From a virus: a stretch of 64,000 nucleotides of DNA. Below the pieces are notes generated by a model. The model saw only the letters and a program-made list of their open reading frames with translations, made no database searches and was not told where the DNA came from. The position numbers were made by a program, and so were the translations under genes. The first letter of the stretch is position 1, and every line of letters starts with the position of its first letter. This document shows, one piece after another, positions 2,663 through 63,762 of the stretch. The DNA lies in IMG/VR virus record IMGVR_UViG_3300045988_116240. One strand, written 5' to 3'.

Positions 2663-3235
2663 TTGATAAGTATTAAAGAAAGGAGTATGAGAGATAGATT
2701 ATTATTGGCATCATGTGCATGCTCTATGTTGATGAGCATATTGGCGATCTGTGTGGCGTTTTATAGATCACCAAACTTGGGTTTTGATTATCAGGGAGTG
2801 ATTGTCGCTACATTGACTATTCTTGTGACAGTGTTGGTTGGTTATCAGGTGATGAGCGTTCTTTCTTTTGATAAGACTATGAACACCAAGTTTGATAAGT
2901 TCAAGGAAGAATATAAAAAGGAGTTGAAATTGGAGACGGTGAAGGCGAATATAGACTTGAAGACTAATATTCGCTTTGCGTTTTTCAAATATGGAGATCA
3001 AGAGGTCATTTTCCATTTGTCAGAGAAAATACCAGATCTTATAGGAGAGCTTGAAGAGAAAGATCAGGTCATATTCTTTGTCGCCGAAATAGAACGGTTA
3101 AAGAAATATATACAAGAAAATCTGAAAGACATAGATAAGAAGTATCTCATTCGTATGAAAGAGGCTTACTTACGTTACGGATATGTTCCTTGCGTCTTTG
3201 ATTTTCTAAAATACTTAGATAACGTTTGTGCATAG
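2663..3235 (+). CDS. hypothetical membrane-anchored protein
   Basis: 190-aa ORF with two N-terminal hydrophobic helices and a charged helical C-terminus. Confidence 0.5.
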   Translation: MISIKERSMRDRLLLASCACSMLMSILAICVAFYRSPNLGFDYQGVIVATLTILVTVLVGYQVMSVLSFDKTMNTKFDKFKEEYKKELKLETVKANIDLKTNIRFAFFKYGDQEVIFHLSEKIPDLIGELEEKDQVIFFVAEIERLKKYIQENLKDIDKKYLIRMKEAYLRYGYVPCVFDFLKYLDNVCA

Positions 3236-3491
3236 CGTTGAGTATTAATAGCTCAGGTTCTTCCATTTTGTCTCCGAATGGATTTATATGCTTTTCCCAA
3301 TGCTTGTAAGTCCCTTTTGAGATGGCTTTAACGCTTTCGCTAATGATATAATAGAAATGCTCGTTATAGTGGTATCTTCTATACATATCAACTAAATCAG
3401 GCTTATACGGCTTATACCGTATTCCTATTAAGGACTCAAGGAATATCCTTAAACGTGATTTGATGGGTATTTTCTTTACGTTCTCTAACAT
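3147..3491 (-). CDS. hypothetical protein
   Basis: 114-aa ORF, convergent with and overlapping the 3' end of 2663..3235. Confidence 0.4.
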   Translation of the reverse strand: MLENVKKIPIKSRLRIFLESLIGIRYKPYKPDLVDMYRRYHYNEHFYYIISESVKAISKGTYKHWEKHINPFGDKMEEPELLILNAMHKRYLSILENQRRKEHIRNVSKPLSYE

Positions 3492-3559
3492 GGTTATAGC
3501 ATCCGATATGCGGATCGGATTTAATTGATAAACGTATCACCCGCATGTGATATAAAAAC

Positions 3560-3569
3560 AAATGTACAT
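3560..3569. promoter_or_regulatory. fourth copy of the AAATGTACAT operator-like motif
   Basis: acaaatgtacat lies 15 nt upstream of the ATG of the HTH gene at 3584. It has the same 10-mer as 2556-2565. Confidence 0.35.
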
Positions 3570-3583
3570 AAAATAATTTACAT

Positions 3584-4030
3584 ATGAGTATTAATACTAG
3601 AATAAAAGAAATAGTGGATTATTATTATGGAAGAGAAAGAGGCTCTTTCCAAAAATTTGCAGATAAGCTTAATGTGTCAAGACAAGCTGTAACAAATTTA
3701 TGTACTGAAGGATCTAGTGTTGGCATGACATCTGTAATGAAAATCCTAGATGCGTTTGATCTTATTGATGCAAATTGGCTTTTACGGGAAAAAGGCAACA
3801 TGTTAAGGGTTGTAACTTCAAATGATGCGTCAGCCGTTTCTGACGAGAAAGTAAAAGATGTCGCTTATTGGAAACATGTAGCTCTTTCCATGAGTGAGGA
3901 GGTGACAGAGAAGAAAGATCGTATTAAAGAATTGGAAAGAGAACTTCAGCGATTAGGTGATGAGTTGGATCAACGTTTATTAAAGGAGGAGAGAAGGGGA
4001 GCATCCGGCAACGCTTCCAAGACTGCCTAG
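3584..4030 (+). CDS. HTH transcriptional regulator with C-terminal coiled coil (repressor candidate)
   Basis: The N-terminus FQKFADKLNVSRQAVTNLCTEG...DANWLLREKGNM has an HTH pattern common in Bacteroidota phage regulators. The C-terminus is a coiled coil. Confidence 0.65.
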   Translation: MSINTRIKEIVDYYYGRERGSFQKFADKLNVSRQAVTNLCTEGSSVGMTSVMKILDAFDLIDANWLLREKGNMLRVVTSNDASAVSDEKVKDVAYWKHVALSMSEEVTEKKDRIKELERELQRLGDELDQRLLKEERRGASGNASKTA

Positions 4031-31829: not shown

Positions 31830-34196
31830 ATGGTATACATATTCAAGGACAGGTTAATTCGGGTAGAGTGGACTATTTACAAGGGGATAAGCCCGGTGAA
31901 AGAGGATTTCTCCCGATCTAATGTAAAGGTTTTTCTATTAGGCAACCGGGAGAAATATCTACTTCAAGCGAGAGCGGACAAAGGTACGCTTTATGTAGAC
32001 ATTCCTTCAGGGTTGGAAGAAGGAACTTACTCTATCGAGGCGATATGGGTCAAGAATATGGATCATGTCTTTGATACACGAAGCGTATGCCGCTCCAAGA
32101 AAGAGGATCTTTTCTCTATTACCGAATTTGAGGACGAGGCTACGAATATCGGAGAAGGTGTCGTCGTGCTGAAAGTAAAGACCTCTACCGCCACTTATGG
32201 CTATGATGGCTTGTCCTCATACGAGCTGGCCGTATTACGTGGGGACTGGAGCGGTACGGAAGGAGAGTGGCTGAAGCATGAGCGTTATGTAAGCGTACTC
32301 GATTCCCGTGGTGATAGCGAGGTTGACACCATGAGCCAAAAGGCCATTACCGATGAGTTGGAGAAACAAGACGAGGCTATAGAGGACATTCGAAATGATA
32401 CAAATGATCTTGGTGATCGGGTAGAGGAAGCGGAGGACAAGGTTAATAATATGGGGAATATCGTTGATGAGATCAAGAGTCACGCCCCGGTATCAGCCCG
32501 TCCCGCCGGTTTCAAGCCGGACATCGACCTTACCCCGGAGATCACGGTAGACCGTGCTTGGAGAGACCATGAGGGTAACGTTATCCGTGATACGTATATC
32601 ACCCGGAGGGGATTGAGGAACGAGATAATCGACATCACCAACCAGCAGGTAACGGACTTGAAGCCCGGTTCCGTCGATCCGGACGATCTTTCCGAGGCTA
32701 CGAAGCAATTGATAGGTAACAAGAGCATAACCAACCTTCCGGACGAGGAGGATATAACCGTTACGGATAACCAGACCTTAAAATTAAAAGACAAGGAATA
32801 CGCCCCGAAGGATTACTCCGGCATGGGACGTGTGTATCTCCGGAAGCATTACGTGAACGGCGTGAACACGCTCACGCAACACATGATGAGAAAACCGAAC
32901 ACCATTTATATCATCCAGTACGATTACTGCCTCGCTGGGCAGACGATCGAGGTGCCGGAGAATTGCGTGTTGAAATTCCAAGGGGGGAGTTTGAGGAATG
33001 GAATAGTAATATTGAATGGAACTTCTTTAATGGAAGATGGATCGAGAATTTTTGATAATATCACTCTTTCGGGCATTCTAAATGGGGACTTATCATGTAC
33101 GATGTTCGGGGCTTCTCCTTCTAGCTCAAAAGACCTAAATTTGGATTCCATAAAAGAAACAATAAAACAGTTAGATAACGTTGGTGGAGGGGAGTTGCTT
33201 ATTCCACAAGAAATAAACTATGGGTATGAAAGAAATACTCCATCTACATGGGTGTATACTACTGTGTCTAATAATATCATCGTAAAGGATGAATCAAAAG
33301 GGAATACATATAATCTTCCATCAAGAGATGGCTCCCAGATTAGAAACTTCTTTATGACAGAAGGAAACCCAATGGATGGCAAGCATGATGGAGGAGGATT
33401 CATGGTGAGAGCTAATTGGCATCCTTACATGATGCTTAGCAATGATAGAGATCCTGTTGAGGCTAATAACAGAAGAGCTACTTATTTTGTAGGTAATAAT
33501 GGGAAAATCTGTTGGGGCATAGGTCAAGGTTCTAATACAATAGAACCTGATGGGACGGATAGGGATGATGCTCTCTCTAATTTCAAGATAGTAGGAAATG
33601 ATATTGCAGGGGGAAATGGGCTTACCAATATGATGGTAATTAATAAAACTAATGCTTTTTTTGGTTTTAATTTGAGTACTCCAGCACAAGATTATCATTT
33701 TAATTTTAGAAATGTAGAAGGGAGGGATAATGCCAATGTTCATTTTGATGCGAGTCTTAGGAGTGGTACATTAGAAATATTATTAACGGCAGGTGAAGCG
33801 AAGAAAAGAATAGGAGTTTCACCAATTACAAATAATCTTTATTTTGTCTCAGATAATAGTATAGTTACAAGTATTACCCGAAATGGAGACATTTTATTAA
33901 AGGGTAACTTAGGCCTATTTACAGGAGAAGGAGACCCAAATGGTGTATTTAGTTGTGGAATTGGAGCACTTTACCAAAATAGAACTGTTCGGGCAAATGG
34001 AAAAGGTTTATATGTGTGTACTGATACAGCCAATAAAAAATTTAATCTGGTTTCGGGTGTAGATTCCTGTACATCGACCTCAAGACCTTCTACTACTGAG
34101 TTACCTGTAGGATTTCCAACTTTTGACACAACATTAGGTAAGCCTATTTGGTGGACAGGCACGAACTGGGTCGATGCCACCGGAGCTACCGTATAA
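31830..34196 (+). CDS. tail fibre / tailspike protein
   Basis: 788 aa with a coiled-coil neck and an AT-rich central module. The C-terminal tip is GFPTFDTTLGKPIWWTGTNWVDATG, a motif shared with 37505..38077. Confidence 0.65.
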   Translation: MVYIFKDRLIRVEWTIYKGISPVKEDFSRSNVKVFLLGNREKYLLQARADKGTLYVDIPSGLEEGTYSIEAIWVKNMDHVFDTRSVCRSKKEDLFSITEFEDEATNIGEGVVVLKVKTSTATYGYDGLSSYELAVLRGDWSGTEGEWLKHERYVSVLDSRGDSEVDTMSQKAITDELEKQDEAIEDIRNDTNDLGDRVEEAEDKVNNMGNIVDEIKSHAPVSARPAGFKPDIDLTPEITVDRAWRDHEGNVIRDTYITRRGLRNEIIDITNQQVTDLKPGSVDPDDLSEATKQLIGNKSITNLPDEEDITVTDNQTLKLKDKEYAPKDYSGMGRVYLRKHYVNGVNTLTQHMMRKPNTIYIIQYDYCLAGQTIEVPENCVLKFQGGSLRNGIVILNGTSLMEDGSRIFDNITLSGILNGDLSCTMFGASPSSSKDLNLDSIKETIKQLDNVGGGELLIPQEINYGYERNTPSTWVYTTVSNNIIVKDESKGNTYNLPSRDGSQIRNFFMTEGNPMDGKHDGGGFMVRANWHPYMMLSNDRDPVEANNRRATYFVGNNGKICWGIGQGSNTIEPDGTDRDDALSNFKIVGNDIAGGNGLTNMMVINKTNAFFGFNLSTPAQDYHFNFRNVEGRDNANVHFDASLRSGTLEILLTAGEAKKRIGVSPITNNLYFVSDNSIVTSITRNGDILLKGNLGLFTGEGDPNGVFSCGIGALYQNRTVRANGKGLYVCTDTANKKFNLVSGVDSCTSTSRPSTTELPVGFPTFDTTLGKPIWWTGTNWVDATGATV

Positions 34197-53323: not shown

Positions 53324-53560
53324 TTATTTTATTTCCTCATTAATAAAATCCTTCATCTCTTCATCGTAAACCCCGCTGTCACGCTGGAGCTCCAAGCATT
53401 TATCCTTGGAAAAATTGGCCTCCCTAGCTATATTAGCGGCCATAGATGGTGCCCTTAGCTCGACAACGAGCATCTGTATGGCGTACCATACGCCTCTGCA
53501 AAAGTCTAAATCGTTCATGTTGTTATATTTGATCTTATCATAGATGAATGCATCTTTCAA
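53324..53560 (-). CDS. hypothetical protein
   Basis: 78-aa ORF. Its start directly abuts the stop of the methyltransferase gene. Confidence 0.45.
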   Translation of the reverse strand: MKDAFIYDKIKYNNMNDLDFCRGVWYAIQMLVVELRAPSMAANIAREANFSKDKCLELQRDSGVYDEEMKDFINEEIK

Positions 53561-54718
53561 CTATGATGAATGAATTGATGCCTCTATCGCCTTGAATATC
53601 TCAAATGCTACTTGTGGGACGATGGCGTTTCCGTAGGCTTTTATCGACTCTTGTCTCCATTTTGTGAAAGGAATGGCAAGGTAGTCCACATCAAAGGGTA
53701 ACCCATCATCTCTTCCACAAACAGGGGGTTGAGTTGGGAAGTCTTTCCACCGTTCTGCTGACAATGCCGGCCTATCATTACTGGTATATTGCATAAGGCA
53801 TCGTCTCTTCTTTTCCCGTTCTTCCGAACTAACCCTGTCGGTGATACCGATGGTTGATAGTCTCTCATTGTCGGAGTCGGCAAAAGCATTGATACAGCAA
53901 GATCGTTCAACTCCATTGTCCAGCCTTGCGATATTTTCCTCCTCGATCTCCCGTCCGTTATTTTTGAGCCATTTTTGTAGCTTCTCGCCGTAGGTGTCGG
54001 TAGCATCTTTTTGTAGGCCGCCTCCGGTAATCCCTGTTGTTTGCTGTTCGGTCCCCTTCGCTTGAAATCTTGGGCCGTCGGTGTCGGAAGCAACGAGACA
54101 TCCATGAACCTTGTCTTTCCGTTCTTGTCGCAAACCTTCAATCCTTGCGTCTGAACGGTCGGAAGCAATGAACCATACCCTGTCCCTCCTGTGAGGGGCT
54201 CCGACACCGCAAGCTGGAATAAGAATCGGCTGGACGGAATATCCCTCACGCTCAAGATCTCGGCAGACGGTCTCGATAACGTATTCTTGCTCGAGTAGCG
54301 TTTCCTTGTCAGACGTTTCAAACAAAGAGGCTTGACTTTCCACCGTAACCTCACTGCCGGGTTGTACCATCGATAGGATTCCAGCAACGTTCTCACCAAT
54401 GACCCAAGTGGGTCGTATCTCTCGTATAGCACGGAGCATTTCTGGCCAGAGGTAACGGTCATCCTCCTGTCCTTTTCGTTGTCCTGCGACTGAAAACGGC
54501 TGACAGGGGAATCCTCCTGTGAGTACGTCAACCTTCCCTCTCCACGGAGTGAAATCAGTTCTTGTAATATCGTCATATTGAATGCTTTTTGGGAAATGAA
54601 ACCTCAGTACCTTTTGGCACCACTCGTTAATCTCGCAATGGAACAGGTTCTCCCATCCCATCCATTCGGCGGCAAGGTCAAAACCGCCCACGCCAGAAAA
54701 TAATGATCCATGTGTCAT
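53561..54718 (-). CDS. DNA (cytosine-5)-methyltransferase (frame A)
   Basis: Motif I LFSGVGGFD, IV GGFPCQPFS, VI GENV, VIII APHRRDRVWF, X YGNAIVPQV (53609-53632). Confidence 0.85.
   Translation of the reverse strand: MTHGSLFSGVGGFDLAAEWMGWENLFHCEINEWCQKVLRFHFPKSIQYDDITRTDFTPWRGKVDVLTGGFPCQPFSVAGQRKGQEDDRYLWPEMLRAIREIRPTWVIGENVAGILSMVQPGSEVTVESQASLFETSDKETLLEQEYVIETVCRDLEREGYSVQPILIPACGVGAPHRRDRVWFIASDRSDARIEGLRQERKDKVHGCLVASDTDGPRFQAKGTEQQTTGITGGGLQKDATDTYGEKLQKWLKNNGREIEEENIARLDNGVERSCCINAFADSDNERLSTIGITDRVSSEEREKKRRCLMQYTSNDRPALSAERWKDFPTQPPVCGRDDGLPFDVDYLAIPFTKWRQESIKAYGNAIVPQVAFEIFKAIEASIHSS
53641..54576 (-). CDS. nested +1-frame ORF (frame B, 311 codons) with LPTPT repeats and a motif-IX-like MMGYPLMWT
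   Basis: Fully inside the methyltransferase gene. Three LPTPT repeats lie at 54067-54093, 53980-54006 and 53860-53886, and LNPLFVEEMMGYPLMWT at 53683-53733. See findings. Confidence 0.45.
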   Translation of the reverse strand: MTILQELISLRGEGRLTYSQEDSPVSRFQSQDNEKDRRMTVTSGQKCSVLYERYDPLGSLVRTLLESYRWYNPAVRLRWKVKPLCLKRLTRKRYSSKNTLSRPSAEILSVRDIPSSRFLFQLAVSEPLTGGTGYGSLLPTVQTQGLKVCDKNGKTRFMDVSLLPTPTAQDFKRRGPNSKQQGLPEAAYKKMLPTPTARSYKNGSKITDGRSRRKISQGWTMELNDLAVSMLLPTPTMRDYQPSVSPTGLVRKNGKRRDDALCNIPVMIGRHCQQNGGKTSQLNPLFVEEMMGYPLMWTTLPFLSQNGDKSR

Positions 54719-63694: not shown

Positions 63695-63762
63695 GTAGGC
63701 CTCCGGGAGTCGAACCCGGCTATTCCCATGTTAGGGACGCTCTGCCGATAAGCTAAGGCCTT
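63695..63762 (-). tRNA. aberrant tRNA-like element (shortened anticodon arm) or tRNA pseudogene
   Basis: AAGGCCT-TA-GCTTATCGGCAGAGC-G-TCCC-TAACAT-GGGA-ATAG-CCGGGTTCGACTCCCGG-AGGCCTA-C. The T- and D-arms are good, pair 1-72 is A-A, and the anticodon arm has a 4-bp stem with a 6-nt loop. Confidence 0.35.

Follow-up and report, generated by a model that had tools for sequence, protein, structure and literature searches.

The stretch of DNA analyzed here, 64,000 nt from the IMG/VR virus record IMGVR_UViG_3300045988_116240 (the window), carries a gene for a C5-cytosine DNA methyltransferase, open reading frame (ORF) A, and a second ORF, B, that lies inside it on the same strand, in the +1 frame. 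The most likely reading, to which we give a probability of about 0.7, is that this locus encodes a two-subunit C5-cytosine DNA methyltransferase, both chains being specified by one DNA that is read in two frames. That the arrangement represents genuine, conserved dual coding, and is neither chance, an assembly error nor a shadow ORF, is well supported. The nested layout is known experimentally from a single C5 methylase, M.EcoHK31I of Escherichia coli, and the sequences compared here show that a very large family of phage genes has conserved it. This family is noteworthy in two respects: its recognition array, which varies combinatorially, is located on the nested chain, and the family, although very large, is systematically mis-annotated.

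An earlier note on this DNA had drawn attention to methyltransferase motifs I, IV, VI, VIII and X in frame A and to a 311-codon ORF nested in the +1 frame, with three near-identical LPTPT repeats and a string shaped like motif IX, which it could not find in A. All of these features are present. The five core motifs expected of a C5-methyltransferase are found in A, the ORF listing places B wholly within it (a same-strand overlap of 936 nt, beginning 142 nt into A), and the stop codon of B does fall just before the codons of motif X, 8 nt away. The note had offered three explanations, namely a conserved dual-coding pair, an enzyme assembled by frameshifting, and two compensating indel errors; the first is supported by the analysis that follows.

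Both frames are open in related loci

How widely is the double reading kept? Both frames are open in about 100 independent homologous loci, and among the homologues checked, the +1 frame is open in nearly all. Twenty-six loci were found via B in named Bacteroidales genomes, including Bacteroides neonati, Parabacteroides segnis, Paraprevotella xylaniphila and Prevotella oral taxon 376; they are 32–54% identical to window B, and in nearly all of them A and B are both open and in the same phase. Hoylesella marshii (DSM 16973) and Segatella copri HDE04 (a complete genome) belong to this set as well, and with Parabacteroides segnis BX2 they are examples of isolate or complete genomes that have the nested layout.

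The number of stop codons to be expected was estimated by holding one protein fixed and shuffling its synonymous codons in a set of 27 loci, made up of the window, the genome loci, L001 and two loci from phages (L032 and L034). When A is the fixed protein, 2.6–8.4 stops are expected in B, and the probability of finding none is at most 0.02 for each locus. With B fixed, 8–20 stops are expected in A, and in no locus was any of 1000 shuffles free of stops. For the window itself, the expectations are 8.4 stops in B (A fixed) and 13 in A (B fixed), with 0 of 1000 shuffles stop-free either way. The observed number is zero in 26 of the 27 loci, while L027 has a single stop in A. A bias-free sample, consisting of 80 viral loci picked by frame A alone (41–87% identity), gave the same picture: in 76 of them, the +1 ORF spans at least half of A and has a motif IX-like sequence, and the median open length across the 80 is 294 codons in the +1 frame vs. 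42.5 codons in the +2 control frame.

Some copies have disturbed frames. L005 (3001-4146), P0116 and P0120 join the motif I region of A to a full-length B, with the change of frame near FP-N-S-E-H-Y; the near-identical L024 is intact. P0054 joins A residues 1–69 to B. Motif X is in the other frame in L016, B is shortened in L026, and L027 has the one A stop mentioned above. Errors in sequencing may lie behind them, or they may be copies in decay or fusion variants that occur naturally.

Selection is partitioned along the gene

How is selection divided between two proteins that share the same DNA? The measure used was synonymous-codon identity, that is, the share of same-residue pairs that also share the codon; such pairwise statistics ignore phylogeny, and the same sequence pairs were compared inside and outside the overlap. 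In the parts that are read in A only (A residues 1–48 and 353–385), A synonymous-codon identity is 0.36–0.52, an ordinary single-frame level. Position 3 of the A codons varies most in the N-terminal of these parts, and when the window is compared with two close relatives, substitutions in both A-only ends fall on the A third position.

Inside the overlap, three regimes are found. Over A residues 81–176, corresponding to B residues 33–128, synonymous-codon identity in A is 0.62–0.73, and that in B is 0.79–0.93 under the A motifs and 0.58–0.59 between them. Over the module region (B residues 129–272), synonymous-codon identity in B is 0.31–0.50, which is the neutral level. Over A residues 321–352, where B carries its motif IX, the values are 0.83–0.92 for A and 0.55–0.70 for B, and both frames are constrained there, with B dominant. 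The same pattern is seen in 72 non-redundant loci, in which A-frame identity has a baseline of 0.46 outside the overlap and reaches 0.60 at residues 81–176 (p = 2e-6) and 0.80 at residues 321–352 (p = 2e-10); the first 32 residues of B show no excess constraint in this test.

In the module region, the comparison with the two close relatives yields 37, 14 and 20 substitutions at A positions 1, 2 and 3, respectively. An excess at A position 1 is an excess at the third position of B, and selection in the middle of the gene therefore acts in the B phase. Since the synonymous sites of B are neutral in this region, only the B protein is selected there, and the A residues are unconstrained. Past the B stop, synonymous identity in A is back to 0.42–0.51 over motif X, and nucleotide identity at A residues 358–369 is 0.84, 0.89 and 0.40 at codon positions 1, 2 and 3. 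Purifying selection thus acts on both frames, with the central part of A simply held open.

The earlier note had inferred purifying selection on B from the three repeats, in which the nucleotide differences appeared to be silent in B and to change residues in A. This is correct within the LPTPT core, where all the differences are synonymous in B (CTT/CTA/TTG, ACA/ACA/ACT, CCG/CCT/CCG, ACG/ACG/ACA) and alter the residues of A (ASDTDG / ATDTYG / ADSDNE). The inference itself is strengthened by the suppression of synonymous variation in A across the overlap and by the B-phase substitutions.

The start codon of B is also conserved. An ATG is found at the aligned position in 55 of the 72 non-redundant loci and no more than four codons away in 65 of them. 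The A tyrosine codon at the B start is TAT in 60 of 66 loci, vs. 52–56% TAT elsewhere. In L007, where A reads Tyr-Lys at this place, the B ATG is lost, and another ATG occurs two codons downstream. In Paenibacillus phage Jacopo, GGGAGGTG is located about 12 nt upstream of the B ATG, inside an A-frame insertion. A wider survey of Shine-Dalgarno sequences in Bacillota-type loci, 20 of which passed the motif filter, is suggestive, with a count that is inflated by taking the best of several starts. Two other in-frame Met codons of B are conserved as well. In most relatives, one of them forms part of an 'SM' near residue 17; the other, at residue 39, is that of R-M-T-V-T-S-G.

Frame A carries the catalytic core

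The protein encoded by frame A matches Pfam family PF00145 over residues 2–379 (E = 3e-41) and phrog_363 over residues 1–380, i.e., most of its length (E = 4e-72). Residues 5–115 match M.HhaI in the PDB (E = 9e-16), and a 93%-identical protein bears the name DNA cytosine methyltransferase [Parabacteroides distasonis]. In the A polypeptide, no target-recognition domain or motif IX was found in the stretch from motif VIII to motif X; the conserved modules and the motif IX-like sequence are in frame B. The intervening A residues 186–322 have a pairwise identity of 12–30% among homologues, without constraint at the level of residues, and form a linker of about 135 residues that is 20% hydrophobic, vs. 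35% in the core.

Frame B carries recognition-type modules and a motif IX-like segment

B matches phrog_1008, annotated 'DNA methyltransferase', over residues 15–300 (E = 5e-29). Its database homologues number in the thousands: a word-indexed search returned 4022 at E ≤ 1e-3, and an exhaustive profile search returned 7648 representatives of clusters formed at 50% identity, of which 492 score below 1e-30. The best 150 of the 7648 representatives were inspected, and all are close relatives. The earlier note had stated that both A-type and B-type strings occur as database proteins, and this is true.

In the alignment, B homologues share an N-terminal domain of about 135 residues, followed by a variable run of units and an invariant end, TSQLNPLFVEEMMG[YF]PLMWTTLPFLS; the string NPLFVEEMMGYPLMWT is present in window B. 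Each unit starts with LLPTPxAxD and continues for 20–40 further residues, and the number of units varies. At least 15 module types occur in 48 distinct arrangements among 67 loci, with one to eight modules per protein; the arrangement in the window is A-H-G-F. These types were assigned without the seed residues; keeping the shared LLPTPxAxD seed lumped all LPTP modules into one family. Tryptic peptides predicted from frame B include FMDVSLLPTPTAQDFK and MLPTPTAR.

What the units and the C-terminal segment of B correspond to is indicated by two types of relatives in which they are attached to other methylase motifs. In gp5 of Gordonia phage Keitabear, a single frame holds motif VIII and four LLPTP units together with motifs IX (FAEWMMMLPAGHVT) and X (IGNGVCP). 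The B-family profile matches residues 160–285 of this protein, comprising the units and motif IX, with a probability of 93% (E = 3e-7), and the motif IX-like segment of B aligns with Keitabear gp5 LNAAFAEWMMMLPAGHVT, just before motif X and in the same frame. The placement of motif IX in B, and not in A, by the earlier note agrees with this alignment. Mycobacterium phage 40AC has a core gene, gp84, that stops just past motif VIII; its last 180 nt or so are overlapped in another frame by a second ORF, in which a lead-in similar to that of B precedes LLPTP units and motifs IX and X. When this beta ORF is compared with the B profile, hhalign gives a probability of 98% (E = 2e-13), with B residues 64–207 aligned. 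From the profile matches to Keitabear gp5 and 40AC, the units and C-terminus of B represent, within a canonical methylase lineage, its recognition region and its motif IX, a point that the earlier note had missed along with the M.EcoHK31I precedent. There are 445 Mycobacterium phage records that match the 40AC beta ORF, and among the matches listed, most show two adjacent methylase genes.

Keitabear gp5 (L117 120-1879, genes 4 and 5) itself starts only at about motif VII–VIII, without motifs I–VI, and the gene directly upstream encodes a LAGLIDADG homing endonuclease. The Keitabear methylase may have been interrupted or split by a mobile endonuclease.

Fully nested forms are found outside the Bacteroidales as well. 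By tblastn against phage genomes, 48 records of Paenibacillus larvae phages match B, and many of them annotate both genes; in Jacopo (NC_048718.1), gp56 (32454-33509) and gp57 (32656-33360, +1 frame) are both annotated as DNA methyltransferase. Excerpts from published accounts of Paenibacillus phages list two methyltransferase genes and do not mention the nesting. A minimal nested form is found on Bacillus thuringiensis plasmid p05, where A has 246 residues (dcm) and the unannotated B has 161, with one LPTP unit followed by LMGFPIKWT. On sequence comparison, then, the natural forms make up a series that starts with single-frame genes, passes through split and partly overlapping ones and ends with full nesting, and the nested form presumably arose from a single-frame ancestor.

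Elsewhere, the public annotation is inconsistent: in many assemblies it keeps B, in others A. The calls for L001–L004 keep B (3001-3879), whose product has no Pfam match, and drop the methylase. In Bacteroides phage BS-TP4 (L034), only A is annotated, and RefSeq gives the Bacillus 246-residue gene (L036 999-1739) as a complete dcm without a nested partner. A Bacteroides finegoldii plasmid record (L035 995-1774) has only a 94-residue 'DNA cytosine methyltransferase' and a 147-residue hypothetical protein. Literature searches on overlapping genes and methylases returned no description of the family, and the string 'LPTPTA' was not found in them.

A proposed two-chain enzyme and its alternatives

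What would such a locus produce? Frame A would yield an alpha subunit with an S-adenosylmethionine-binding and catalytic core (motifs I–VIII), a hydrophilic linker of about 135 residues and motif X, the sequence of the linker being simply the out-of-frame reading of B. Frame B would yield, from its own ATG, a beta subunit consisting of a 136-residue N-terminal domain, four LPTP modules and motif IX. By analogy, alpha and beta would join into one active enzyme, in which beta fills the small DNA-recognition domain at the place where the alpha linker loops out. An enzyme encoded in a prophage replication module would, also by analogy, most likely guard the phage DNA from host restriction. Translation of A from end to end would explain why its middle is open yet unconstrained and why motif X is selected in frame A, and translation of B from its own ATG would explain the constraint on its N-terminal domain and on the start codon. 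That the chains associate, that both are needed and what role they serve we infer from the analogy.

Several points weigh against the two-chain enzyme. The evidence that the A and B proteins are made is indirect, consisting of selection and the conserved B start. Pfam has no family match for the B-type proteins of the window, Jacopo, Bacillus and 40AC, and PDB sequence searches with B and with the B-family profile gave nothing meaningful; the assignment of motif IX therefore comes from its pattern and from the alignment of the profile with Keitabear gp5, with no curated model. AlphaFold models of B (from a 103-sequence alignment; predicted local distance difference test score, pLDDT, 56; predicted template modeling score 0.23) and of A (37 close homologues; pLDDT 38) are too poor for a test of fold or interface. 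A also keeps a moderately constrained W..FPTQSPV..G.DG over the B motif IX, the role of which is unexplained. The analogy with M.EcoHK31I is inexact, since in that enzyme the predicted recognition domain is on alpha and beta is small, whereas the window has its modules on beta, and the window pair is likened to M.EcoHK31I by its published layout, not by sequence. Finally, a potential –1 slippery heptamer at a Pro-Leu of B leaves a small opening for a minor B-to-A fusion that would carry motif X.

Could the whole enzyme be made in this way, by two programmed frameshifts from A to B past motif VIII and from B back to A before motif X? Only such a chimeric reading gives all of the motifs in canonical order and spacing, and relatives with motif VIII, recognition domain, IX and X in one frame do exist. 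Moreover, a heptamer of the type X XXY YYZ (C CCT TTG or TTA) occurs at the B Pro-Leu in 44 of 67 loci; that of the window, C CCT TTG, is at 53692-53698 (minus strand), at frame B Pro294-Leu295. However, the conserved residues of the two frames (A Pro-Phe-Asp/Asn, B Tyr/Phe-Pro-Leu) wholly determine the heptamer, 23 of the 67 loci lack it while having the same layout, and the 92 nt past it fold no better than shuffled sequence (z = 0.01). No signal for a +1 shift, such as a frame-A stop past motif VIII, is present. Frameshifting has no need for a stop-free A through a middle of 130–250 codons, in which 8–20 stops are expected, and in B, selection acts on the 135 codons upstream of any such site, the first of which is a conserved ATG. 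On the heptamer scan, the RNA fold downstream, the open A middle and the constrained upstream part of B, frameshift assembly, one of the explanations raised in the earlier note, was rejected as the main mechanism, and we regard it as distinctly improbable. An alternative that deserves more weight, while still being unlikely, is that both proteins are made and A is active alone, with B acting independently as a DNA-binding regulator or anti-restriction factor derived from a methylase recognition domain. This, too, would put both frames under selection; the interaction between the chains is inferred only, and the B N-terminal domain is without a known function. On the other hand, A has no conserved recognition domain, its middle is unconstrained and it has no canonical motif IX, so that it is unlikely to recognize DNA alone; an independent B is the less economical explanation for this reason. 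B, in turn, keeps motif IX, which in methylases is one of the structural elements of the small domain, the sole characterized nested case needs both chains, and the A–B pair has been inherited together across phyla.

The last possibility, that B is a non-functional shadow ORF resulting from composition or codon bias, or the product of two compensating sequencing or assembly indels, is hardly credible. Long alternative-frame ORFs can arise by chance, and a few database proteins (P0054, P0116, P0120) are evident frameshift fusions of the A N-terminus with B. Chance is nevertheless rejected by the codon shuffles and by the short +2 control frame, mid-gene selection is in the B phase, and B shares homology with a genuine protein segment that is encoded in frame. 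Compensating indels, which the earlier note had also considered, are excluded, as the same layout is found again in the genomes of isolates, in complete genomes, and in those of phages from two further phyla.

Layout of the locus and its neighbors

The coordinates of the locus are given in Table 1. It sits in a prophage replication module and adjoins YopX-type and replication-initiator-type ORFs; no restriction enzyme gene was noticed adjoining the methylase gene of the window.

Table 1. Features of the nested methylase locus in the window
Feature	Coordinates	Strand	Remarks
ORF A, C5-cytosine methyltransferase, proposed alpha subunit	53561..54718	minus	385 aa; ORF listing
ORF B, proposed beta subunit	53641..54576	minus	311 aa; +1 frame, wholly inside ORF A
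A-only N-terminal part, motifs I–III	54577..54718	minus	upstream of B start
A motif I, LFSGVGG	54683-54703	minus	
B start codon, ATG	54574..54576	minus	built from A codons TAT-G (Tyr48-Asp49)
Doubly constrained stretch	54169..54576	minus	B N-terminal domain (aa 1–136) overprinted on A motifs IV–VIII
A motif IV, GFPCQPFS	54491-54514	minus	
A motif VI, ENVAG	54380-54394	minus	
A motif VIII, PHRRDRV	54176-54196	minus	
Four recognition-type modules in B	53743..54168	minus	each beginning LLPT/LPTP; types A-H-G-F
Hydrophilic read-through linker	53753-54163	minus	A reading of the B module DNA
B repeat, LLPTPTAQD	54067-54093	minus	
B repeat, MLPTPTARS	53980-54006	minus	
B repeat, LLPTPTMRD	53860-53886	minus	
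Conserved A segment, RWKDFPTQPPVCGRDDGLPFDVDYLAIPFTKW	53657-53752	minus	overlapping the B motif IX-like segment
Motif IX-like segment of B, TSQLNPLFVEEMMGYPLMWTTLPFLS	53665..53742	minus	
B stop codon	53641-53643	minus	8 nt before motif X codons of A
A-only C-terminal part	53564..53640	minus	3' of B stop; with motif X
A motif X, GNAIVPQV	53609-53632	minus	

Directly 3' of the methylase gene, at 53324-53560 (minus strand), is an ORF of 78 codons with a TTG start right after the A stop. In L001–L004, the same downstream position (3984-4229 in L001) is occupied by a gene for an 81-residue protein with a match to the phosphopantetheine-binding family PF00550. Near the start of the window, at 732-806 and 1896-1969, ARAGORN lists genes for tRNA-Met(cat) and tRNA-Arg(cct) of the ordinary kind; near its end, at 63695-63762 (minus strand), it lists a tRNA-like gene of undetermined identity, with a two-base anticodon loop call, 'ac'.

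Implications

Why should a recognition array be placed inside a catalytic gene? One tentative answer, which we consider possible but would not favor at present, is that beta is an interchangeable specificity subunit, in which combinations of LPTP modules give multispecific methylases whose targets shift by module shuffling. With the array overprinted on the catalytic gene, each gain or loss of a module would lengthen or shorten the unselected linker of alpha. If beta does serve in this way, few functional pairs of nested same-strand genes in bacteria and phages would be as long or as widespread as this family, with its thousands of members in Bacteroidota and Bacillota and an origin that can be traced via the series from single-frame to nested forms.

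The overlap has a clear functional rationale, strong and cleanly partitioned selection and hundreds of independent homologues, and since natural intermediates exist, it makes a good model for the origin and upkeep of overprinting. There is a practical side as well. Gene callers admit one frame, so that either the methylase or its partner is lost in public assemblies, and as a result of this mis-annotation, surveys of methylomes and restriction-modification in gut Bacteroidales and Bacillota prophages misjudge these enzymes. A methylase that is split by nature and has a recognition chain built of modules is also a possible platform for targeted methylation, a use to which M.EcoHK31I has already been put.

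Comparison with known methylases

According to passages in PMC2836561 and PMC3404938, M.EcoHK31I, from E. coli HK31 (Lee, Kam and Shaw 1995), is a C5-cytosine methyltransferase of two polypeptides, alpha and beta, with beta encoded wholly inside the alpha gene in a different frame; alpha has motifs I–VIII and X, beta has motif IX, and both are required. Met codons downstream of the beta start and in frame with it can also initiate translation (passages in PMC2836561). The other two-chain enzyme described there is M.AquI, with motifs IX and X on the second chain, and the two are presented as exceptions among characterized C5 methylases (passages in PMC2836561 and PMC3404938).

The window resembles M.EcoHK31I in that the B ORF is wholly within the A gene in another frame, in that the large chain has motifs I–VIII along with X, the small chain motif IX (IX by profile and pattern only), and in that B, like beta of M.EcoHK31I, has conserved internal Met codons. 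It differs in the size of its beta, which at 311 residues is about 80% as long as alpha, and in that the counterpart stretch of alpha is an unconstrained linker. A tblastn search of plasmids with B returned no Escherichia record.

M.AquI-type enzymes and the mycobacteriophage pairs (40AC gp84/gp83) share with the window a division into two polypeptides in the variable region past motif VIII; in 40AC, window B has a homologue in the second chain. In M.AquI and 40AC, however, the first gene ends past motif VIII, motif X is found with IX on the second chain and the second ORF is mostly downstream, whereas the window has motif X in frame A past the B stop and a fully nested B. Jacopo gp56/gp57 share the architecture and the +1 phase of the window, with a B-type protein that is 27–28% identical over 86–89% of the query; the Paenibacillus larvae phages differ from the window in having a host of a different phylum, fewer modules and a Shine-Dalgarno sequence before B.

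One small prophage methylase has been characterized before: M.BatI, of Bacillus anthracis prophage LambdaBa01, is described as a 5-methylcytosine methylase that is 20–30% smaller than typical and possibly represents a new subclass, and cloning of its whole gene in E. coli gave an active enzyme (PMC8936443).

As to the modules, there is a likeness in architecture to the enzymes of four Bacillus phages: both are phage-borne and have tandem modules, the set of which differs between related phages. The multispecific C5-methyltransferases of Bacillus phages SPR, phi3T, rho11s and H2 are single chains with tandem short recognition modules. It is our conjecture that each LPTP module likewise corresponds to one target. 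Unlike the single-chain enzymes of SPR, phi3T, rho11s and H2, the family to which the window belongs has its modules on a separate, nested chain.

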